DNA of 64,000 nt from a virus (IMGVR_UViG_3300009177_000030:30721-94720); one strand, 5' to 3'; positions 6,971-48,800 are shown, counted from the first letter of the stretch. Notes: generated by a model from the letters alone, not told the origin. A program made the numbers and translations.

Positions 6971-8421
6971 TGAGTGGCGTCGGTGCTGTTGAGAATAGTC
7001 TTTGGCAGGAAACTACCACCAGCACCCATGGAGTGCTCGAATGATTGGCCGGTATGGTAGAACGGGATGCCAAGTTCAAGACGTACTTCGTTTTCAACCC
7101 AGTCCCGCATCTCCACCAGGCGTTCCGGCGAAATATGGTCTGTCCATACGTGGCTTATATAGGAACCAGGTTGGCCTTTATAAAACTGGGCCTCAGTCGT
7201 AAAGTCTACATCGTGCATGTAGAGTCTGTCCCCAGACTTCGGAGCCGTGTAGCACCATGAACCATCGGGCATCGTTACTGCGTCGTCGTAGTAGGGTGAA
7301 CCCGGGTAAGGGGTGATGATCGTGCAATCGAAGTCGCTCGGCTTCACGTCAACGAGCCAGTCCCGAATACAACGAATAGTGTCTTCAGACTCGCCAGCAT
7401 GTCCGGTGCTCATCAAAGCCTTCACCTTGAGGCCAGCGTTGTGAGCGATCTTAACCGCCCGCGTGTTGTCAGCCACGGTGGCGTTCTTCTGGATGTTGAG
7501 GAGAATGCGTTCATCGGCAGACTCGAATCCGATCAGGATTTGGCGGAACCCGGCACCGTACATCGCTTCAGCCTGTTCATCAGTGAAAAGCTCTGCCTTG
7601 ATGAATCCGCGGAGTTTCCATTGGATGCCGCGCTCATCGGCTGCAGCCTTGAGTTGACGCATCAGATCGACCATGGAACGGTTGATATTAAGCTCGTCGT
7701 CCATCGCCATGGCGGCCGTAAATCCGTAGGTATCGTAGAGGTGGACCATTTCCGCCACTGCGTTCTCCGAAGAACGTAAGCGAATACGGCGAAGAAAGGC
7801 AGAGTTCCTCCCGGCACAAAACGAGCAAGACATGGGACAGCCCAACTGATGGATCATAGAGGCTGCGGGAGCGCCGTCAATCTGGTAATGATAGGAACTC
7901 ACGTCTATCAAATGCCGTGCAGGCCAACCACTTTCTTCGAATCCTTTATGGGTGAGAAATAACGCGGACTTCGGATCATCTGCATTCACAAGTCCGCGAT
8001 CCATTAGCAACGCTTGGTGGATTGCATCCTCTCCATCACCTGCCACGATTACCTCAGCGTATTGGAATAATCGTTCCATGGCTGCTGCGGCCCGTGTGGA
8101 TTTCTTGATCGCAGCGTGCGTTAGAGTTGCGTGTGGGCCACCAAGAATCCTGGTACCGTGTCCACTTAGACGTTTGAGAATATTCAACGCAGCAGGCATC
8201 TGTGGACTGGTAGCCGTGACACCAAACTTTTTAGTTTCCGGTCGAAGGGTGAGGTAGTCCCCGATCACGTCAACGTAATTCTTGACGCCACTCAGGTCGA
8301 GCATATCGACGATATGGCCTGCACGTTCCAGTGACGTGGCAACCTTGAGAATACCAAGAGCCATAAATACCTTCTCGTCCATGAGGAACGAACTCGGCGG
8401 GATGATCAGGCAGATACGCAC
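6967..8421 (-). CDS. Cobalamin-binding radical SAM enzyme (class B methylase-like)
   Basis: N-terminal B12-binding-like domain (ILGGPHAT, VAGDGED), CPMSCSFC CxxxCxxC, IGFES and PYPGSPYY. Confidence 0.9.
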   Translation of the reverse strand: MRICLIIPPSSFLMDEKVFMALGILKVATSLERAGHIVDMLDLSGVKNYVDVIGDYLTLRPETKKFGVTATSPQMPAALNILKRLSGHGTRILGGPHATLTHAAIKKSTRAAAAMERLFQYAEVIVAGDGEDAIHQALLMDRGLVNADDPKSALFLTHKGFEESGWPARHLIDVSSYHYQIDGAPAASMIHQLGCPMSCSFCAGRNSAFLRRIRLRSSENAVAEMVHLYDTYGFTAAMAMDDELNINRSMVDLMRQLKAAADERGIQWKLRGFIKAELFTDEQAEAMYGAGFRQILIGFESADERILLNIQKNATVADNTRAVKIAHNAGLKVKALMSTGHAGESEDTIRCIRDWLVDVKPSDFDCTIITPYPGSPYYDDAVTMPDGSWCYTAPKSGDRLYMHDVDFTTEAQFYKGQPGSYISHVWTDHISPERLVEMRDWVENEVRLELGIPFYHTGQSFEHSMGAGGSFLPKTILNSTDATQ

Positions 8422-9197
8422 TATTCGTATAGTACGCCAGGAATCGCCTGTTGCAGCCGAATCTCAGCCCCCGGTGCCAGATTGCCGTTGCTTTGGCGGA
8501 TGCCGGTGTGGGCGACGACGTGAGGATTTATTACGCCGATGCGACCGCCGCCATAGACTTCGATCTGTCCAGCGCGGATCTGTTCTTCGGTGGGCTGGCA
8601 TGGCCCCAGTGGGGCCGTTAACCGCTGACAGAACGTCACATCCTCTCCCTGGCAAACTCCCGGTGTATGGCATTCCAGCGGGCCGTACTTGCGCCATGTG
8701 TCCCAGCGCATCAGCCAAGAGGGGCCGTCGAGCATGGAGTGTTCGGTGAACAGAGGATCAGTGCCGATGGCCTCTTGTAGGGAATTGTTGATCGGCTGGT
8801 GATAGGGATGAACTTGACCACCGAATAACCGATAACCTGAAGGTTCCAGAAACGTTGCTAATTTGGTTAATTTCTCCAGCCACCCCGGCGAAAACCAGAC
8901 ATCATTATCAGACAACGCCAGCCAATCCCCAGCCCCGAAATACTTCTCACTCCAGTACACCGCCAGATTCCGCGCTTGGCCGGTGATGCCTTTGGATGAC
9001 TTGAGCGAAATCAGGGCCATGTTGCGGTGGTCGGCGGCGTAGCGTTCAAGCAAGCGGGTTGTTCTAAAATCCGTGCTGGCGTCTTCAACGCAGGTCAACG
9101 TGAAGGATTTCTTATCGGTGTTTTCGTAGAGCGATCGGAGCGCCTGGTCTGTTAGACGGGGGCGGTCTTTGGCCAAGAGACAGATATTTGTTGTCAT
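8421..9197 (-). CDS. Glycosyltransferase family 2
   Basis: VEDASTD, QARN, LSDNDV and GEDVTFC motifs; ATG 9197. Confidence 0.85.
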   Translation of the reverse strand: MTTNICLLAKDRPRLTDQALRSLYENTDKKSFTLTCVEDASTDFRTTRLLERYAADHRNMALISLKSSKGITGQARNLAVYWSEKYFGAGDWLALSDNDVWFSPGWLEKLTKLATFLEPSGYRLFGGQVHPYHQPINNSLQEAIGTDPLFTEHSMLDGPSWLMRWDTWRKYGPLECHTPGVCQGEDVTFCQRLTAPLGPCQPTEEQIRAGQIEVYGGGRIGVINPHVVAHTGIRQSNGNLAPGAEIRLQQAIPGVLYE

Positions 9198-39553: not shown

Positions 39554-40614
39554 TCGGACCGTCAACTACTCGGAAATACTGCGTAGACGTTAAATGCCAA
39601 CGGTGCGGGGCGATCAGAACTGCCGAAAATCGTCGAAACAGAATACCTGCTTTCTGTCGGGATTGCATTCGCACAAAGGACCGTGTTCACCTAACGTGTC
39701 CCGTCTGCTCAAAGGAATGGTCGGTGAAGAAGTCTCACGCGCCGCGCACTAAATACTGTTCTAAGGCGTGCGAGGCTGTTGGATACAGGGATCAAATGCG
39801 GAATGACTCCAACCCGAACTGGAGGGGCGGAGATGTAGTTGTTAAATGCCAACAGTGTGAACGTGATTATAAGGTCCGTAGGTCCGTAGCGTCCCGAGCT
39901 AAATGCTGTTCCCGTTCATGCCTGTCGTCCTACCGCTCTGTATTGATGAAGGGCAGACCCAACCCAATCCATAAAAAACGCGTTACGCGACCGAAACCAG
40001 ATAAGGCACCGAAACCAAGTCGGTCGAGCAATCTAGACGCAAAAACTTATACTGGAAATTGCCCTAAGTGTAATGTGCGAAGAAAAATAACCAAGGGCTG
40101 TGATCCGCTCTGTCAAATATGCCGAAGGGAGGGAAAGCAGCCGATAAAGCCTTGCTTACTGTGCAATACGCCTCGTTCGTGGAACGGTACTTCTGGAATA
40201 TGCTCAAGGTGCTACAGATCCTCAAGATTAGGGGCGTCTAACCCGAACTGGAAAGGCGGAATCACCCCAGCCAACAAGAAATTAAGGGCCTCTCCCGAAT
40301 ATAAGGCGTGGCGGATAGCCGTTTTTGAAAGAGACAGTTACACATGTCAAAAATGCGGTCAAGTGGGATGGACGCTTCACGCTCACCACCTCATACCGTT
40401 TTCTGCAGATCCAGAATTTAGGCTCGAAGTGTCAAATGGCCAGACGTTATGCGAGCCATGCCACAGAAAAACGGATTCATTTTTGGGGAAAGCAAAAACG
40501 TGGGGAAAAAGTCGCTTGCAGCGCAGTTTTTCGTTTGCAGTAGAACGGCCCGTTGAGTGGGGAGAACCCGATATCTCGGCCACGCTGGAGAAATTGAAGC
40601 AGGCGATTGGGTAG
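39538..40614 (+). CDS. HNH homing-type endonuclease with multiple Zn-finger and NPNWKGG modules
   Basis: Repeated CxxC/CSxxC, NPNWRGG and NPNWKGG, VFERDSYTCQKCG...HAHH...NGQTLCEPCH. Confidence 0.9.
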   Translation: MPTLVIGPSTTRKYCVDVKCQRCGAIRTAENRRNRIPAFCRDCIRTKDRVHLTCPVCSKEWSVKKSHAPRTKYCSKACEAVGYRDQMRNDSNPNWRGGDVVVKCQQCERDYKVRRSVASRAKCCSRSCLSSYRSVLMKGRPNPIHKKRVTRPKPDKAPKPSRSSNLDAKTYTGNCPKCNVRRKITKGCDPLCQICRREGKQPIKPCLLCNTPRSWNGTSGICSRCYRSSRLGASNPNWKGGITPANKKLRASPEYKAWRIAVFERDSYTCQKCGQVGWTLHAHHLIPFSADPEFRLEVSNGQTLCEPCHRKTDSFLGKAKTWGKSRLQRSFSFAVERPVEWGEPDISATLEKLKQAIG

Positions 40615-41759
40615 TGGTCTACTACAACGAGCTCGACAGGAAGAAAGCTGCATGGCTACGCGAACTGATAAAAGTAAACGCCATAGCAAAAGGTGAAGTA
40701 GATGAGCGATCAATTACCGATGTTCAACCAGGAGACCTTGACGGATTCGACCAGTGCCACTTCTTCGCCGGCATTGGAATCTGGAGCTACGCACTCCGGT
40801 GCGCCGGATGGCCAGACGAAGCGCAGGCTTGGACTGGTTCATGCCCGTGCCAACCGTTCAGCGTTGCTGGAAAGGGTGAAGGAACCGAGGATAGACGACA
40901 CCTTTGGCCAGCTTGGTTTAGACTCATCCGCGAGCGAAAGCCTGGGGTGGTCTTTGGCGAACAGGTTTCGTCTCCGGACGCACTCGCTTGGCTCGACATT
41001 GTTTTCGATGACATGGAAGGCTCGGCGTACACCATCGGGGCGGCGGATTTATGCGCTCCGGGCGTCGGCGCGCCCCACATCCGAAACCGTACTTTCTTCG
41101 TGGGCGACGCCCCGGACGCAAACGGGGGGGGCGGAATCTGGAGCAAGGAAGAAGGAACTCGGCCGGATGGAATCAGGCGGCGGGGATCTGGAGAGTCAGG
41201 CACTTCTTGCCAGTTGGCCGACACCGAGAGCGGAAGATTCGGAATCGAGCGGGATGATAGTATCCAGGGGAACAGCGGACACGTTAACGGCTGTAGCGAG
41301 TCTAACGGGATGGGCAACACCCACGAAACGGGATCACAAAGACGGAGCCAGCGAGGGAGCAGTGGAAGTAAACGCGCTTTTGGGTCGGCAAGTGTGGCTG
41401 GCAGCATGGCCAACGCCGAACGCAAATCCGGATGCTCCAAATATGAGCAAGAACCGAGGATCGGATCACGGCGGGGATCGGCGTCGATATACGTTGCAGG
41501 GTTTGGGGGAAGCGGCGAAGAATATCGACGTGGACCTGTTAACGGGTTCTGGGAAGATGCCGTGTGGATTCCATGCAGATCCGAAAGAGAAGGCGAAGAA
41601 GGACGGTATCGGCCAATTGAATCCTGCTCATTCCCGTTGGCTTATGGGACTCCCCAGCGTGTGGGACGACTGCGGGGTTACGGCGATGGAATCGTTGCGC
41701 CCCTTGCGCAAGCATTCATCGAGTGTTACATCGAAGAGTGCGACATAGTCTTCGCATGA
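40614..41759 (+). CDS. C5-cytosine DNA methyltransferase, alpha polypeptide
   Basis: FFAGIG (I), CPCQPFS (IV), GEQV (VI), HIRNR (VIII) and LRGYGDGIV (X); motif IX is absent from this frame. Confidence 0.9.
   Translation: MVYYNELDRKKAAWLRELIKVNAIAKGEVDERSITDVQPGDLDGFDQCHFFAGIGIWSYALRCAGWPDEAQAWTGSCPCQPFSVAGKGEGTEDRRHLWPAWFRLIRERKPGVVFGEQVSSPDALAWLDIVFDDMEGSAYTIGAADLCAPGVGAPHIRNRTFFVGDAPDANGGGGIWSKEEGTRPDGIRRRGSGESGTSCQLADTESGRFGIERDDSIQGNSGHVNGCSESNGMGNTHETGSQRRSQRGSSGSKRAFGSASVAGSMANAERKSGCSKYEQEPRIGSRRGSASIYVAGFGGSGEEYRRGPVNGFWEDAVWIPCRSEREGEEGRYRPIESCSFPLAYGTPQRVGRLRGYGDGIVAPLAQAFIECYIEECDIVFA
40702..41748 (+). CDS. C5-cytosine DNA methyltransferase, beta polypeptide in overlapping +1 frame
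   Basis: 348-codon open frame nested in alpha; W(A/P)TP repeats and QLNPAHSRWLMGLP (motif IX-like). Confidence 0.75.
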   Translation: MSDQLPMFNQETLTDSTSATSSPALESGATHSGAPDGQTKRRLGLVHARANRSALLERVKEPRIDDTFGQLGLDSSASESLGWSLANRFRLRTHSLGSTLFSMTWKARRTPSGRRIYALRASARPTSETVLSSWATPRTQTGGAESGARKKELGRMESGGGDLESQALLASWPTPRAEDSESSGMIVSRGTADTLTAVASLTGWATPTKRDHKDGASEGAVEVNALLGRQVWLAAWPTPNANPDAPNMSKNRGSDHGGDRRRYTLQGLGEAAKNIDVDLLTGSGKMPCGFHADPKEKAKKDGIGQLNPAHSRWLMGLPSVWDDCGVTAMESLRPLRKHSSSVTSKSAT

Positions 41760-42089: not shown

Positions 42090-42118
42090 TTGACATCGTA
42101 TGTGGGTATCTGTATACT
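42090..42118 (+). promoter_or_regulatory. Near-consensus sigma70 promoter of the ABC/OmpA operon
   Basis: TTGACA-17-TATACT, 8 nt before ATG 42127; ATGTTGACAT imperfect palindrome over the -35. Confidence 0.75.
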
Positions 42119-42126
42119 CGCTTTGT

Positions 42127-42291
42127 ATGCCAAACATCAACGTAAAAGATGACGTTCACAAGCGCCTTAAGCAATTGGCGCTAGACACCGGCGAAACCCT
42201 CTGCAACGTGGTCCATAACGCTTGCATGGACACACTATCGGCCGCCGAAAAGAAGGTCGCCGAAGTCAAGAAGAAGAGCACCCGCAAATGA
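42127..42291 (+). CDS. Ribbon-helix-helix regulator (leaderless)
   Basis: MPNINVKDDVHKRLKQLALDTGETLCNVV. Confidence 0.7.
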   Translation: MPNINVKDDVHKRLKQLALDTGETLCNVVHNACMDTLSAAEKKVAEVKKKSTRK

Positions 42292-42878
42292 GCTGGCTCG
42301 CCCAAATTCAGGATCTAGTATTCGAGCCTGAAGAGATGAAGCCGACTCCGACAGCATCCGCAGCGCCAGCAACAACGACTGCATCGCCTGCATATGTTCC
42401 GTCGATTCCACCGGCTTGCGGGCCGATGGACGGATTTCTCGCCAAACTCCGCTCCAAACTTCAATCACCCGGATCGCCAGTAGAGAAGTTCGAAGCAACC
42501 CTGAACTCTTTAACTGCCATCGCGGACATCGGCACGCGGGTTACCGCGGCAGCCAGCGTTCTGAAGGCAACCGCTGGTATCGACGCCACTCAAATCAGGG
42601 CTGCGTACAATGACCGTCTGAACGCAATCGAGGTGCAGTGTGGTCAATTCAAGACGGCTCTCGACGGGCAACACCAGCAAGTGGAGCAGATGACGGCTGA
42701 TATCGATGCGAAGAACCGTGATATCCAAGCACTAACGCAACAGCGGGATTCGCTGAACGCGGATATCGCGTCTATACGAACGAAGATCGCGACAGCGCAG
42801 GCAGGTTTCGACAGCGCGGTCGCTACCGTTCGAAACGAAATTCAGGAAGCTATGAACAGATTGAAAGGGGTTCAGTAA
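42288..42878 (+). CDS. Soluble coiled-coil protein with N-terminal amphipathic helix
   Basis: MSWLAQIQDLVF, Pro/Ala linker and long heptad C-terminus; ATGA coupling. Confidence 0.75.
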   Translation: MSWLAQIQDLVFEPEEMKPTPTASAAPATTTASPAYVPSIPPACGPMDGFLAKLRSKLQSPGSPVEKFEATLNSLTAIADIGTRVTAAASVLKATAGIDATQIRAAYNDRLNAIEVQCGQFKTALDGQHQQVEQMTADIDAKNRDIQALTQQRDSLNADIASIRTKIATAQAGFDSAVATVRNEIQEAMNRLKGVQ

Positions 42879-43861
42879 TGGAAACGGCAACACACGGATA
42901 TTTTTCAGGCCCGGAAGGCAAGGTTAACGCTACGACGTGGGGAGCACTCGGGCTCGGGCTCGCGGTCGTTATTTACTTGATGGGTGGATCGGTCGGCGAA
43001 TATCTTGTCAACGCGGCCGACAACACGATGCACCTCGTTATCGTGGGGTGTGCGCTGGCGTTTGTTCTGGCTGCGCTCATGGACCCGAAGAAACGGCTCT
43101 GGTACGTCTACCGCGGCATTGTCCGCTGGCTGATGAGTTTCTGGATCGAACTTGATCCGATCGGTATCCGCAAGTCCTACGTGGAGCGTCTGAAGGCCAA
43201 GCAGGAGAAGTTCATCGAAGCCGTTGGTACTCTGCGCGGTCAGTTGATCGGCATGAAGCGGGACGCCGCCGGGAATCAGATGGAACTGGAACGGCATGAG
43301 GCGCTATTCAAAGAGGCTATGAAGGTCGGCGATCAGCGGGCGCAGGTCTCCAACAGTAAAGACATGCAGCGCTGCCAGATACTGGCCAAGCAATACGCCG
43401 GCGGGATTGAAAATCTGACCAAGATGCAGACCGTTGTGGTTCGGTACCAGGAGATCTGCGCTGACGAGATAGCCGACAAGGAATCTGACATCGTATTCCG
43501 CCAGAAGCAGTTGAAGTTGTCGAAGGCGACCGGCAGTATCAGCGGGGCTATCAAAGGCATCCTCAGCGGGCTTCCCGAGAAGGATCTGTACGACGAAGCC
43601 GGAAACGTTCTGGACGCGATGTACGATCAGACGCTCGGCGAGTTCGACAATGCCTTGGACATCACGAAGGATGTTCTGAGTAACGCCAATTTGGCCGACA
43701 GTGCGGCTCTTCAGGCTGCACTATCCAGATTCGAAAACAACAATTCAAAAGTTCTGGTAGGGAAGACAACGAAAGAAGAAATTCTTCGTCAGATTCCGGC
43801 GGCAATTCCGGCCCCACGGGCGACTACGTCGACATCCACGGACTACTCCGACCTGCTGTAG
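42878..43861 (+). CDS. Two-TM protein with PspA/IM30-like helical hairpin
   Basis: Two TM helices, then ELDPIGI and ~200 aa of coiled coil; TAATG coupling. Confidence 0.65.
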   Translation: METATHGYFSGPEGKVNATTWGALGLGLAVVIYLMGGSVGEYLVNAADNTMHLVIVGCALAFVLAALMDPKKRLWYVYRGIVRWLMSFWIELDPIGIRKSYVERLKAKQEKFIEAVGTLRGQLIGMKRDAAGNQMELERHEALFKEAMKVGDQRAQVSNSKDMQRCQILAKQYAGGIENLTKMQTVVVRYQEICADEIADKESDIVFRQKQLKLSKATGSISGAIKGILSGLPEKDLYDEAGNVLDAMYDQTLGEFDNALDITKDVLSNANLADSAALQAALSRFENNNSKVLVGKTTKEEILRQIPAAIPAPRATTSTSTDYSDLL

Positions 43862-43903
43862 TAGTCACTTTTTAACTAGAATTTTGAGGAGATGAGGAAA
43901 ACT

Positions 43904-45694
43904 ATGTCAAAAATTAAAACGGCACCGAAATTGGTAATTGGGCTGGCCCTGATCGTGGGCGGCTTGCTGGAATTGAAGCATCTCGTTTACGTTGGAGTGA
44001 TCCCGCGGCCTAGCGCCATGAAGACGGTAATTCCGATCAAGGCGGAAGAATTGAGCGCTACGGTTTTATCCGGTGGAACGGTGGCAGCGAAGCCACTGCC
44101 AACCGCCACTCCCATGCAGGTTTGCATGGACGGAAACACCAGTAACTGCGTCAATTCCACGCCCGTGGAAATGGAAACATGGGCATGGAACGGGAACATT
44201 GGATTGCTGTACTCTATCGGGGGTCCGCAGACCACCAAGGGTTCTATCACGGCCTCACATGGACTGATGGTCAGCACAAGGCGGCAAGACGACACCGGCC
44301 AGATGAACAACGACTTACTGGACACAGCCCAAAAACTTCAATCTGATCCAAATGCGCCGGGCGTCAAGCTCATCACCATCATGGGCGATGGAGCAGCGGC
44401 TGAACTTGCCGCAATTAACCCGAAACTCCAGAAGGTTTGTCCGGATTGCGGGCTGAAGGTGGTTGGCGTCATGGGCTACTCCCGGGGTGAGGATGTTTTC
44501 ATGGGGCCTGCCGATTGGAAGGCAGACCCGCAGAAATCCCGCGGTGGCCTGGTGATCGGGGTATTGCGCGACGGCGACTGGAATATAGCGCTGAAATGGC
44601 TTGGCCAAAACGGCATCCCAAACAACCCGGACGACACCTCCTACGATCCGAGCGCTCTCAACTGGATCAATTCCGATTCCTACACTAAGGCCGCAGGCGA
44701 CTTTGCTACCGGGAATGCCTGCGTGGATATTCCCGTAAAAGGCAAACTGGGCGGAGCAAAGGTGCATAAATGCGCTGACGCTGTGGTCACGTGGACACCT
44801 GGCGACGTTACCGTGGCGAAGAAGCGGGGCGGTGTAGTGCCGATTGCATCGACGGCTCAATACGTATTCCAGATGCCGTGCGTTATTCTCGGCATTGACC
44901 GGTGGATGAAGTCCCACCGCGGTGAAGTTCAGAATTTACTCGCGTCCGCATTCGAAGGTGCCGACCAGATCCGCTCCAATTCCGCCGCGCTGCAAAAGGC
45001 TGGCGAAATCTCCGCTAAAATATACAACGAGGAAAACGCGGACTACTGGGTCAAGTACTTCAAAGGGGTGACCGAACCCGATGCTCAGGGAATCCGGGTA
45101 CACCTCGGAGGAAGCGCGGTCGCCAACCTTGCCGATAACCTCCAAGCGTTCGGACTCAACGGTGGACCTTCGCTGTTCGCCGCAACGTACACGACATTCG
45201 GCAAGATCGTAGTCCAGCAGTATCCGCGACTGGTGCCGAGTTTCCCAACGGCCGAAGGTATTGTGGACACGTCATATTTGGCTGCACTTAAGGGGACGAT
45301 GACCGCGCCGGCAGAAGACATCATCAAGGCGTCTACGGCTCCGATGAAATCGATTGCCGGGAAGCGTAACTACAGTATTCAGTTTGCCGTGGGCAGTGCC
45401 CAACCACTCTCATCGTCCTACGCTGACTTGGAGCAACTTGCCGCCGATATCAGTCTGACAAACTACATCGTTGCGTTGCATTCTCACACAGACAACACGG
45501 GAAGCGCCGAAGCCAATATGGATTTGAGTCAACGCCGTGGCGATAGCGTGGCCGCATATCTGAAGCAAAAGGGCGTCCGGAATACGATACGAAGCTATGC
45601 TCATGGTTCTGAAGAGCCGTTGCCTGGCAACGATCCCAATTCCGTGGCTGGCCGCGCTAAGAATCGCAGAGTTCAGGTAGTTTTAGGAGAATAA
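43904..45694 (+). CDS. Membrane-anchored ABC substrate-binding-like protein fused to an OmpA/MotB C-terminal peptidoglycan-binding domain
   Basis: N-terminal TM; GYSRGED, DGDWN and VTWTPGD (SBP-like); HTDNTG...NMDLSQRRG...RAKNRRVQV. Confidence 0.85.
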   Translation: MSKIKTAPKLVIGLALIVGGLLELKHLVYVGVIPRPSAMKTVIPIKAEELSATVLSGGTVAAKPLPTATPMQVCMDGNTSNCVNSTPVEMETWAWNGNIGLLYSIGGPQTTKGSITASHGLMVSTRRQDDTGQMNNDLLDTAQKLQSDPNAPGVKLITIMGDGAAAELAAINPKLQKVCPDCGLKVVGVMGYSRGEDVFMGPADWKADPQKSRGGLVIGVLRDGDWNIALKWLGQNGIPNNPDDTSYDPSALNWINSDSYTKAAGDFATGNACVDIPVKGKLGGAKVHKCADAVVTWTPGDVTVAKKRGGVVPIASTAQYVFQMPCVILGIDRWMKSHRGEVQNLLASAFEGADQIRSNSAALQKAGEISAKIYNEENADYWVKYFKGVTEPDAQGIRVHLGGSAVANLADNLQAFGLNGGPSLFAATYTTFGKIVVQQYPRLVPSFPTAEGIVDTSYLAALKGTMTAPAEDIIKASTAPMKSIAGKRNYSIQFAVGSAQPLSSSYADLEQLAADISLTNYIVALHSHTDNTGSAEANMDLSQRRGDSVAAYLKQKGVRNTIRSYAHGSEEPLPGNDPNSVAGRAKNRRVQVVLGE

Positions 45695-45695
45695 T

Positions 45696-45902
45696 ATGGA
45701 AAAGCCACTCGCAATCAACGGCCCGATCATAATCAATCCGGCCAAGGTCCTTTGGGCCAACATCGAAGCCGTGCTTCCAAAAGGAACCGGCGTACAAATT
45801 CAGTTCGAAGGGCAGTCTGCTCCTTCTAACTTTTACGACGGGGATGCTGGCGCCGCAGCTTCTATCCTTGTCGCCTCATCTCAGGAGGCTCCGAATGCGT
45901 AA
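45696..45902 (+). CDS. Small hypothetical protein
   Basis: AGGAG RBS; 68 aa. Confidence 0.55.
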   Translation: MEKPLAINGPIIINPAKVLWANIEAVLPKGTGVQIQFEGQSAPSNFYDGDAGAAASILVASSQEAPNA

Positions 45903-46395
45903 AGCAATTCTTTCTTTATTTGCTCTGGTATTGGCCGCCTGCGGTCCTGCCTACGTTCAGCCGGTTCAATCTGGATGGAACGGAGACCCCTGCGACCAGT
46001 CATACTTTGACGCCATGGCATGCCGGACCGCAATCGGTCTCGGAGGATGGTACCTGAATGGCGTGCTGGTTCCGCACTATTACGGCGGATATGGATACGA
46101 TCATTACTATCAAGCGAACCACGTCTACATCCTGCATGGCGGCCACGTGAATTCCTACAGCCAGTCCGTGAGAACGGTGCGTCCGGTCCAGCCTGCCAGT
46201 TCGGTGAATTCAGCATCGAAAGCCTATATTCCTCCATCACAACGCGCTCCCGCTGGATCTGCCGCATCGGCTTCGAAACCATACACTCCACCGAGCCGAC
46301 CGGCTAGCAGTTATAGTCCGCCGTCCAGACCTGCAAGCAGTTACAGTCCGCCGTCTCGGCCGTCCAGCAGTTACTCGTCGCCGAGGCGAAAGTGA
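45895..46395 (+). CDS. Lipoprotein with Tyr/Gly core and Ser/Pro repeat tail
   Basis: AGGAGG RBS; lipobox LAAC; PASSYSPPSR repeats with 30-nt period at ~46290-46385. Confidence 0.75.
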   Translation: MRKAILSLFALVLAACGPAYVQPVQSGWNGDPCDQSYFDAMACRTAIGLGGWYLNGVLVPHYYGGYGYDHYYQANHVYILHGGHVNSYSQSVRTVRPVQPASSVNSASKAYIPPSQRAPAGSAASASKPYTPPSRPASSYSPPSRPASSYSPPSRPSSSYSSPRRK

Positions 46396-46592
46396 ACCGG
46401 GACACCTTATTCTCCCGCGGGATCACCATGGCTAACGTCGTGCTGATCCTGCTGGGAATCTGGTTATGCTATCTCGCGTTCTCATTCGTTCGCGTAGTCG
46501 CGTTCTGGATTCTTTTTCATGTGTTTGGGATTGCCGCATCCTTGGCGGCTATAGCGGTTGTGTTTTTCTGGTGGAAAGCAAAACGCAAATGA
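46392..46592 (+). CDS. Small two-TM protein
   Basis: Highly hydrophobic with a basic tail; GTGA coupling. Confidence 0.6.
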   Translation: MNRDTLFSRGITMANVVLILLGIWLCYLAFSFVRVVAFWILFHVFGIAASLAAIAVVFFWWKAKRK

Positions 46593-47449
46593 TGGGCTTC
46601 TTGATCGCCGAATACGAAAAACGCCGGGATGCTGAGCACGGCCACGGTCCGATCCACGACCGCGAGCGATACCTGTCTCACTGGATAACGCCGAACGGAA
46701 GCCTGCATAATACCGGGTTTACAATCCTGCTCGCTACATGGATCGGACTGTTTCTGGTCGTGTGGGTCTCCGCCGGTGCCAGTTACCTGCCTTCCCCGTT
46801 TGAAGTTGTGCGGGCACTCCCTGGACTCTGGAATGAAGACGGATTGGGCGTTCAGATATGGACGAGCTTGGAACTTAATCTCGAGGCCGTAATTTTGACT
46901 TTCATCGCATCCCTGTTGATCGCTTACGCCACCGTGCTGCCACTATTCCGACCGCTGGCGACACTCGTATCATCAGGCAGGTTCAACGGGATGGTGGGGC
47001 TTCCGCTGGTTTTTCTGAGCCTCCTGCATAATCCGCACTGGGTGAAGGTCGCGCTCCTGGTATTCGGGACTGGCGTATTTATGGTCCTGTCTCTCGTGCG
47101 AATGATCGAGAATATCCCGACTGAGTTATTTGATCACTCAAGAACGCTCGGAATGTCGGAGTGGCGCGTGGCGTGGGAGGTTGTGGTGCTCGGCCAGTTC
47201 GATCAGGTGCTCGACATATTTCGCGGATCGGCAGCAATGACTTGGGTATTGCTCCCGATGGTGGAGGGATACTTCCGGTTTGAGGGCGGCGTCGGCACTC
47301 TGATGCTAACAGAAGCGAAGCATCTGAACCTGGATGCGGTCTTCGCCATCATGTTTGTTGTGCTGGCGATCGGATTTGCTCAGGACTGGATATTCGGGAA
47401 GGTGCGAAATTTGATATGTCCGTGGGCGGATTTGGGGGTGAGGAAATGA
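46589..47449 (+). CDS. ABC transporter permease (NitT/TauT/SsuC-like)
   Basis: YLPSPFEV, about 6 TM helices, EAA-loop-like IPTELFDHSRTLGMSEW, GGVG. Confidence 0.88.
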   Translation: MMGFLIAEYEKRRDAEHGHGPIHDRERYLSHWITPNGSLHNTGFTILLATWIGLFLVVWVSAGASYLPSPFEVVRALPGLWNEDGLGVQIWTSLELNLEAVILTFIASLLIAYATVLPLFRPLATLVSSGRFNGMVGLPLVFLSLLHNPHWVKVALLVFGTGVFMVLSLVRMIENIPTELFDHSRTLGMSEWRVAWEVVVLGQFDQVLDIFRGSAAMTWVLLPMVEGYFRFEGGVGTLMLTEAKHLNLDAVFAIMFVVLAIGFAQDWIFGKVRNLICPWADLGVRK

Positions 47450-47982
47450 TAGCTTTATTCATAGTCCTGGCTGCGGTTTTTATCGTGATTGTCGCCATTG
47501 CATCGCAGGAGAAATCTACCCGGAGCATCGACCTCACAAGCGTAAGGGACGCAATGGTAAGCAGACACGGATGGACACCCGAGAGGGCCGATGCCGCCCG
47601 GGGCGAATACCTGAAATTTCTAGCGATCCTCCGCAAGAAGCCAGATTTTCCAGTAGTTCCATGGCTAACCGACGGGAGGGACGATCTTGATCAATTTTGG
47701 CATCAGCACATTCTGGACACCGCCAAATACTCCCGAGACTGTCATTACCTGTTCGGAAAACTGGTCCATCACGATCCTCACTTAAAAAAAGGTTCGAAGG
47801 AAGAACTTTCGGCCGCGCAAAGGACACAGGCCGCTTACGTAGACTCTTGTGGTGGGGTCATTGAAGGCTCCGCCCCTGGACATCATTGCGATAGTTCCCA
47901 TAGCGACTCTTCTCACAGTTGCAGTACCCATAGTTGCTCAAGTCATAGTTGCGGCGGCCACGGATGTGGAGGCGGCCATTGA
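47446..47982 (+). CDS. Glycine-rich-domain (GRDP/TIGR04222-like) membrane protein with His/Ser/Cys tail
   Basis: N-terminal TM; EYLKFL, LDQFWHQHILDT..Y..DC and HHDP; tail HHCDSSHSDSSHSCSTHSCSSHSCGGHGCGGGH. Confidence 0.75.
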   Translation: MIALFIVLAAVFIVIVAIASQEKSTRSIDLTSVRDAMVSRHGWTPERADAARGEYLKFLAILRKKPDFPVVPWLTDGRDDLDQFWHQHILDTAKYSRDCHYLFGKLVHHDPHLKKGSKEELSAAQRTQAAYVDSCGGVIEGSAPGHHCDSSHSDSSHSCSTHSCSSHSCGGHGCGGGH

Positions 47983-48800
47983 TAGCCACCCGTACCGATA
48001 CCCTGCTGTCCGTAGAGAAAGTCTGCCTATCCTACGGCGATAACGTTGTACTGCGCAATGTAAACCTACAGATCAATGATCTCGTGATTCCGGGACGCAT
48101 TACCGGCCAAATTGTCGGAATTCTAGGTCCCAGTGGCGTAGGTAAAACTTCACTTATCAGCATTATTGCCGGGCTACAGCGGCCGACTTCCGGGTCTGTT
48201 CTTATCGGGCGCGAGCAGTCTCCAGTACGCGCTGGAAACGTTGGTGTAGTGAGTCAGAACTACATCGTTTACCGGAACAAGGAAGTGATCGACAATTTAC
48301 TTGTGGCCGCAATGCAGGCAAAAGATAAGCCTGGCCGCAAAGAGGCACTGCAGCGCTCTGTCGACATGCTCAGCGATTTCGGGCTACTCGACAAAGCCCA
48401 CCTTTACCCGGCGCAACTATCTGGTGGCCAACGCCAGCGTGTGGCAATCGCTCAGCAGATTTTAGCCAGCGGCGATTTTCTTGTCTTCGACGAACCTACC
48501 GCCGGGCTGGACCCGGCTTCGAAGGACAAGACATGCGAACTGATTACGCGGTTGGCGCATCGCTCCGAAACCGAAACGATATTGATCGTTAGCCACGACA
48601 TCCCGTCTGTGGTCGCACTCTGCGACACTATCGTCCTGATGGGCCGATCCAAAGACCAGCCGGGCGCCAACGTGGCCGCTGAGTTGGACATGATCTCTCG
48701 TGGGTTGGTTCTAAATGGTGGCGGCGTACACAGTCTGCGCCGTAAACCTGAGTTCCGGGAGACCGTGGATGAGATTCAGGATATGTTTGCAACTTTATAA
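47979..48800 (+). CDS. ABC transporter ATP-binding protein
   Basis: GPSGVGKT, LSGGQRQR, LVFDEP and VSHD. Confidence 0.95.
   Translation: MIATRTDTLLSVEKVCLSYGDNVVLRNVNLQINDLVIPGRITGQIVGILGPSGVGKTSLISIIAGLQRPTSGSVLIGREQSPVRAGNVGVVSQNYIVYRNKEVIDNLLVAAMQAKDKPGRKEALQRSVDMLSDFGLLDKAHLYPAQLSGGQRQRVAIAQQILASGDFLVFDEPTAGLDPASKDKTCELITRLAHRSETETILIVSHDIPSVVALCDTIVLMGRSKDQPGANVAAELDMISRGLVLNGGGVHSLRRKPEFRETVDEIQDMFATL

Follow-up and report, generated by a model that had tools for sequence, protein, structure and literature searches.

A stretch of 64,000 nt of viral DNA, hereafter the window (bases 30721-94720 of IMGVR_UViG_3300009177_000030, a 94,720-bp IMG/VR virus that CheckV rates as complete), carries a tightly packed cluster of ten genes on its + strand, which we number g1 to g10. 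Five of them, g2, g3, g4, g8 and g10, form a unit that we read, with a probability of roughly 0.7, as a compact version, carried by a soil phage, of the 'PspA-associated ABC (ATP-binding cassette) transporter' operon of bacteria. The module is real and conserved; it is not categorically new, as operons of this kind are known from comparative genomics. Our analysis establishes its gene content, the homologies of its proteins, its synteny and fixed gene order, its intact sequence motifs and its distribution among phages and bacteria. As for function, an earlier note on this DNA had proposed a trans-envelope machine; membrane maintenance coupled to solute import seems more likely.

The five-gene unit in phages and bacteria

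Homologs of g4, the putative binding protein of the transporter, occur on 89 IMG/VR contigs. To count the core genes, we scanned related g4 loci with iterative and profile searches, 80 from bacteria and 80 viral ones from IMG/VR (160 in all), taking the best of each collection. Among these viral loci, g3 is present in 76/80, the permease, adjacent to g4, in 75/80, the ATPase, adjacent to the permease, in 74/80 and g2 in at least 58/80. A further 14 g3-type loci have a divergent upstream family of about 232 amino acids (aa); they include LR756500.1, an uncultured 462-kb GenBank phage in which g4, permease and ATPase follow one another as in the window. Searching in the reverse direction, from g3, returned 14 viral loci, and permease and ATPase genes lie downstream in 14/14. 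The viral records that we checked are 141 to 578 kb long; three of them, of 436, 478 and 578 kb, have direct terminal repeats at their ends.

The same transporter genes are widespread in bacteria. More than 2288 full-length g4 homologs were recovered, and g4 is encoded by 483 bacterial species (one genome per species), mainly of the Acidobacteriota, Armatimonadota, Myxococcota and Gemmatimonadota. Homologs of the permease (76/80) and the ATPase (77/80), 38-50% identical, adjoin g4 in the bacterial loci. In many of these, a Pfam-positive PspA immediately precedes g4, as in L030 (PF04012, E 1.5e-15), which has an AAA+ ATPase downstream; in another (L044), PspA likewise stands immediately upstream of the g4 homolog, the position that g3 has in the window. 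Iterative searches found PspA in 23 of the 80 bacterial loci, an unnamed upstream partner that we call X in 21, a transmembrane (TM)-anchored helical family resembling Snf7 (TM-Snf7-like) in 52 and the AAA+ ATPase in 19. These classic loci agree with the operon string in Table S3 of a published comparative study (PMC11237479). A single viral locus belongs to the classic type (L102; IMGVR_UViG_3300044957_000763, 478 kb, with direct terminal repeats), and there the arrangement is g4, permease, ATPase, TM-Snf7-like, X.

A compact type, in which homologs of g2 and g3 immediately precede g4, makes up 13/80 bacterial loci, 12 in Terriglobales-type Acidobacteriota and one in Longimicrobium. Among the best 80 viral loci it accounts for 76, the terminal-repeat-bounded records of 436 and 578 kb included. 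All 13 bacterial loci are devoid of the PspA, TM-Snf7 and AAA+ families. In the window, the TM-Snf7 profile likewise matched nothing, hmmsearch matches being limited to g2, g3, g4, g8 and g10, and a search for AAA+ (PF00004) across the whole 94.7-kb phage gave nothing besides a 14-bit P-loop match in g10. On a FastTree phylogeny of 160 g4 proteins, the compact/classic label requires one change and the virus/bacterium label five; the compact type occupies one side of the tree and is mostly phage-borne. The earlier note had named the co-occurrence of the coiled-coil and ABC genes elsewhere as something to check, and they do occur together, both at the viral frequencies given above and as a pair in the compact bacterial loci.

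The compact bacterial loci also bear on the idea that the module is an envelope sensor for superinfection exclusion or defence, in which a peptidoglycan-anchored complex would detect the damage done by an incoming phage and the coiled-coil proteins would block entry, by a logic like that of Zorya. Such a role would suit a phage-encoded module with long coiled-coils, and the peptidoglycan-binding domain of g4 does give weak ZorB-like matches (E 3e-6, to the OmpA part only). However, the same core is found in an ordinary chromosomal context, flanked by isoamylase and spermidine synthase genes. Furthermore, PADLOC returned no specific match, only generic ones to OmpA (ZorB), ABC ATPase and coiled-coil, and the conserved part of the module includes neither a nuclease nor another effector gene. 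We regard a defence function as distinctly improbable.

In L008, L009, L014 and other Thermoanaerobaculia loci (at about 7850-9000), two long open reading frames (ORFs) overlap in different frames at the TM-Snf7 gene, and both match helical families. Most likely they are spurious alternative frames of high-GC sequence, or else reflect frameshifts in metagenome-assembled genomes (MAGs). One family built from L008 ('U373') was discarded, as its members proved to be ORFs read in another frame of the TM-Snf7 gene in MAGs of high GC content.

The core proteins

In the window, g3 (42878-43861, 327 aa) immediately precedes the binding-protein gene and is predicted to encode a 2-TM hairpin followed by a PspA/ESCRT-III-like helical domain. 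Compared by hhalign with the Pfam-positive PspA of the bacterial operon, the g3 family scored 91.8% (E 7e-7, 232 columns), and with larger alignments 95.3% (E 2e-8, 209 columns). The alignment starts at the N-terminal helix and D/E-P motif of PspA, which correspond to g3 residues 73-100. Consistent with this, the AlphaFold 2 (AF2) model of g3 has two TM helices, an amphipathic helix, a long hairpin at residues 94-222 (predicted local distance difference test, pLDDT, 80-93) and two more helices, and Foldseek returned Vipp1, PspA and CdvB2 for this model at prob 1.0. The family is large (1251 representatives at 50% identity), and PF04012 was matched directly by two of 38 members, with a best E of 2e-6. 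The ESM Atlas gave unnamed clusters only, the nearest named one being PspA/IM30 at 0.77, which we treat as a lead only, and phmmer and profile searches of g3 against PDB sequences gave only coiled-coil noise. Together, profile-profile comparison, synteny and the fold model indicate that g3 is a relative of PspA/IM30, within the ESCRT-III superfamily. The PspA-like label that had been proposed for it is thus borne out by the first two of these, without Pfam support in the window protein, and the two proposed TM segments are confirmed as a hairpin.

We also considered whether g3 might be the Snf7 component of the operon instead. This was rejected because hhalign gave no signal between g3 and the TM-Snf7-like family; the operon PspA gave no signal against that family either. 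Two short motifs of g3 are conserved from phage to acidobacterial homologs, an acidic/aromatic DYSDLL(K) at the C terminus (window 43840-43861) and a PEGK at the N terminus. By analogy with the MIM (MIT-interacting motif) sequences of ESCRT-III proteins, either could be a docking peptide.

Upstream of g3, and overlapping it by a single position, g2 (42288-42878, 196 aa) encodes a predicted soluble coiled-coil protein. Its Pfam matches are to generic coiled-coil models only. Between the g2 family and X, the family that precedes PspA in the classic operon, hhalign gave 96.2% (E 2e-9, 54 columns). This family comparison, together with synteny, indicates that g2 is the homolog of X.

The third core gene, g4 (43892-45694, 600 aa), is predicted to encode a TM anchor, a binding domain and a C-terminal OmpA-like domain. 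The last of these, at residues 498-586, matches PF00691 at 49.8 bits against a cutoff of 27.2 and contains the D...NxxLSxxR motif, whose columns D534, N542, L545, S546 and R549 do not vary across 23 homologs; we take these residues to be the peptidoglycan-binding motif. In the AF2 model (pLDDT 81.6; predicted TM-score, pTM, 0.78), a TM helix at the N terminus is followed by an α/β domain of two lobes and then by the OmpA domain. For the middle domain (about residues 90-470), Foldseek returned TauA (6ssy, E 8e-10, TM-score 0.75 by target), and further structural matches of this domain are NrtA, CmpA and SsuA, with the entries 2g29, 2i4b and 3ksj; the whole set gave TM-scores of 0.59-0.75 by target. 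Because it combines a TM anchor, a two-lobed binding domain and an OmpA domain, g4 is predicted to be a binding protein tied to both the inner membrane and the cell wall. AF2, Foldseek and PF00691 thereby agree with the earlier description of a membrane-anchored binding protein ending in an OmpA-like domain. To call the whole a trans-envelope machine is nevertheless an overstatement, as nothing reaches the outer membrane and g4 spans from the inner membrane to the peptidoglycan only.

Some viral loci hold additional matches to the g4 profile. Loci L159 (6543-9500) and L160 (13588-16500), on IMG/VR contigs, show two additional ones downstream of the module, and in a third locus (L161) a second match sits beside g4. 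These may be paralogs of the binding protein or of its OmpA domain.

The remaining two core genes encode the transporter proper. The product of g8 (46589-47449, 286 aa) is a putative ABC type I importer permease (BPD_transp_1), matching PF00528 marginally at 27.3 bits against a cutoff of 26.4; in NCBIfam, SaoP was its sole match, at 30 bits where the cutoff is 295. The ATPase g10 (47949-48800, about 265-283 aa, the start being uncertain) matches PF00005 (ABC_tran) at 89 bits, and Walker A, Q-loop, LSGGQ, Walker B with its Glu and H-loop are all readable in its sequence, so that the claim of an intact ABC ATPase stands. Its best NCBIfam models, PhnT2, CysA, TauB and SsuB, scored 113-137 bits against curated cutoffs of 357-458, and none was passed. 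The permease had been called NitT/TauT-type: its match to BPD_transp_1, marginal as it is, supports a permease of the general kind, but the narrower label passes no curated NitT/TauT family cutoff.

These same data raise the possibility of a plain nutrient importer, in which g4, g8 and g10 would feed phage replication by taking up a solute of the NitT/TauT type (nitrate, bicarbonate, sulfonate, taurine or a thiamine precursor) and the coiled-coil genes would be unrelated neighbours. The TauA/NrtA/CmpA/SsuA fold of the g4 binding domain and the names of the best g10 models point in this direction, and PHROGs class such ATPases as moron or auxiliary metabolic genes (AMG). However, g2 and g3 are nearly always found upstream of g4 in fixed order (76/80 viral loci), and PspA or Snf7 genes accompany the transporter triad in bacteria. 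In addition, no characterised binding protein matches the binding domain in sequence, and no curated transporter equivalog cutoff is reached, including those for taurine and for sulfonate and nitrate, the last two being the importers that the earlier note had named as a test. We therefore consider simple nutrient import an unlikely account of the module.

Layout of the locus and its accessory genes

The ten ORFs extend from 42127 to 48800 with overlaps of 1-8 nt or short gaps between them; the g1 stop and g2 start, for instance, overlap as ATGA, and Shine-Dalgarno-like sequences precede most of the ten. A predicted sigma-70-like promoter, TTGACA-17-TATACT, lies ahead of them on the same strand (42090-42118) with an 11/12 match to consensus. 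Both the close spacing of ten coupled genes and the near-consensus promoter had been described from the sequence at the outset, and both descriptions hold. The ATG of g1 (42127-42291, 54 aa) sits 8 nt past the -10 element, a spacing that makes a leaderless or near-leaderless start plausible. The ribbon-helix-helix (RHH) identity also claimed for this gene has weaker footing, its Pfam matches being sub-threshold (RHH_5, E 0.052; Antitox_RHH, E 0.11; PSK_trans_fac; E range 0.05-0.11), and we treat g1 as a possible RHH regulator.

The ten genes do not form one conserved unit, as only five of them are conserved elsewhere. Jackhmmer searches with g1, g5, g6, g7 and g9 against the 160 related loci found no in-module homologs except those of g1 and g7 in L085, the closest relative. 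Because homologs were essentially not found, we left these five genes out of the conserved unit and regard them as accessory. The spacing of g4, permease and ATPase differs by kilobases between viral loci, and these positions therefore appear to gather lineage-specific small genes. Across the whole locus, searches of Pfam, NCBIfam and PHROG gave nothing significant for the seven proteins besides the ATPase, the permease and the OmpA-bearing g4.

Two accessory inserts follow g4 directly. For g5 (45696-45902, 68 aa), which is without a TM helix, no homolog was found. The product of g6 (45895-46395, 166 aa) is a predicted lipoprotein with the lipobox LAAC, and its tail holds three near-identical proline/serine-rich repeats (YSPPSRPASS). 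It is followed by g7 (46392-46592, 66 aa), encoding a small protein with a predicted 2-TM hairpin; the lipoprotein and small membrane proteins listed in the earlier note are thus recognizable. A third insert, g9 (47446-47982, 178 aa), separates permease and ATPase and would encode a TM anchor, a GRDP-like region (FWHQHILDT; PF07173, E 0.03, sub-threshold) and a C-terminal tail rich in His, Cys and Ser (HSDSSHSCSTHSCSSHSCGGHGCGGGH) that looks metal-binding. The g9 domain recurs in two viral loci, L114 and L161, where it lies outside the module.

Upstream of the module, the + strand encodes a DNA helicase (phrog_16), an HNH endonuclease and a DNA methyltransferase (phrog_363), and downstream a 980-aa primase/polymerase-like protein. 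The methyltransferase gene (window 40557-41759; E 5e-69 to phrog_363) is overlapped in another frame by a 348-codon open frame at 40702-41748. A blastn search of the module region against GenBank phages gave no match.

This neighbourhood is relevant to whether the module might time lysis, with PspA-like proteins countering holin damage and the peptidoglycan-bound protein cooperating with the lysis machinery. PspA proteins counter proton leakage, which would fit such a device, and g2 has a weak match to a PHROG holin family (E 0.007). At 17 bits, however, the holin match is a coiled-coil artefact. The module lies among DNA-metabolism genes of the same strand rather than beside recognizable lysis genes, and its surroundings are therefore a weak argument against a lysis role; the chromosomal bacterial copies, too, have no lysis context. 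We give this explanation very little credence.

Proposed role and comparison with known systems

Our preferred reading, a compact PspA-associated ABC transporter operon, can be set out as follows. The phage would express the module alongside its DNA-metabolism genes during infection. The N-terminal two-helix hairpin would fix g3 permanently in the inner membrane in an N-in/C-in topology that places the helical domain, the part expected to polymerise, in the cytoplasm, and g2 would be a soluble coiled-coil partner that polymerises together with it. Acting from the cytoplasmic side, the two proteins might cover the inner membrane or alter its shape, and so keep it tight. At the same place, g4, g8 and g10 would act as a type I ABC importer for a small solute, the binding protein being held between inner membrane and peptidoglycan. 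The outcome would be that membrane integrity, proton-motive force or osmotic state is kept through the long replication of large phages. The inferred elements of this scheme are topology, polymerisation, substrate import, any physical coupling and the advantage that the phage would gain.

Several points weigh against this reading. Co-occurrence of g2 and g3 with a transporter is no proof that they are coupled to it, physically or functionally. The window g3 itself has no PF04012 match in Pfam at E <= 0.01, and profile searches of the g4 binding domain against PDB and Pfam found no sequence-level relative, only the OmpA domain. The loci examined were chosen by score, as the best 80 of each collection. 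Finally, the only public sequencing run that holds the stretch is one rhizosphere DNA metagenome, probably its source, and no RNA run is listed for it.

Coupling of a different kind can also be imagined for the compact type. Here, the ABC transporter would serve mainly as a sensor and motor controlling the g3 polymer rather than as a nutrient pump, with ligand binding by g4 and ATP hydrolysis by g10 driving the assembly or disassembly of g2 and g3 and so replacing the Snf7/AAA+ (Vps4-like) pair. We think this a long shot; if true, phages would have a means of sealing or remodelling the inner membrane of the host at a chosen moment.

The module is of wider interest as PspA, Vipp1 and ESCRT-III proteins are membrane-repair and membrane-remodelling polymers, and it bears on how such polymers may be regulated without a Vps4-like ATPase. 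What recurs, in phages from 95 kb to more than 500 kb, is a five-gene unit that joins a predicted membrane-anchored PspA relative to an ABC importer without an AAA+ partner. The unit is small enough for expression from a plasmid, so that both the cooperation of an ABC transporter with a PspA polymer and its gain for large phages become testable. Furthermore, g3 shows that a survey relying on the Pfam model of PspA counts too few of the PspA-like genes of phages.

The composition of the module, which the earlier note had held to be undescribed and without a characterised counterpart, is in fact on record. An operon of PspA, a periplasmic binding protein (PBP)-OmpA fusion, permease and ABC ATPase was described by comparative genomics (Ravi et al. 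2024, PMC11237479; Text S2.2, Table S3), together with a membrane-anchored divergent Snf7 gene and a double AAA+ ATPase, and was read there as linking membrane remodelling and solute transport. The transporter part is common to both (a binding protein fused to OmpA, a permease and an ATPase, with 42-48% identity to bacterial copies), and so are the genes before it, an X homolog and then a PspA homolog immediately ahead of the binding protein. It differs in that its PspA homolog, g3, has a predicted 2-TM anchor and is too divergent for Pfam; in having no TM-Snf7 gene in the module and no AAA+ ATPase in the module or the whole phage; in belonging to a separate, mostly phage-borne clade of the g4 tree; and in its extra lineage-specific small genes.

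PspA genes of phages beside ABC transporters are likewise on record. In a preprint of October 2026, Yuan & Chen report the pspA gene from 184 huge phages and from 667 genomes of IMG/VR; a complete ABC transporter adjoins 15/189 phage pspA genes (bioRxiv 10.64898/2026.10.24.761521). The window has in common with that set a PspA-family gene beside membrane and transport genes, but the phage here is of 95 kb and not above 200 kb. The screen of the preprint took only proteins of 200-300 aa that match PF04012 at E <= 1e-5 (bioRxiv 10.64898/2026.10.24.761521); g3 falls outside it because it is 327 aa long and has no PF04012 match.

Compared with the canonical members of its family, E. coli PspA, cyanobacterial Vipp1 (IM30) and B. 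subtilis LiaH, g3 has the same predicted hairpin with further helices, the amphipathic helix and the D/E-P motif. In contrast to these peripheral, soluble proteins, which are recruited to stressed membranes, g3 is a predicted integral membrane protein; it also has PEGK and DYSDLL(K) motifs of its own, and the module is without PspB, PspC and PspF partners. With the TauABC, SsuABC, NrtABCD and CmpABCD importers, the module shares the predicted binding-domain fold, the type I permease and the ATPase motifs. It departs from them in missing all of the curated cutoffs and in having a binding protein that is predicted to be TM-anchored and is fused to an OmpA domain.

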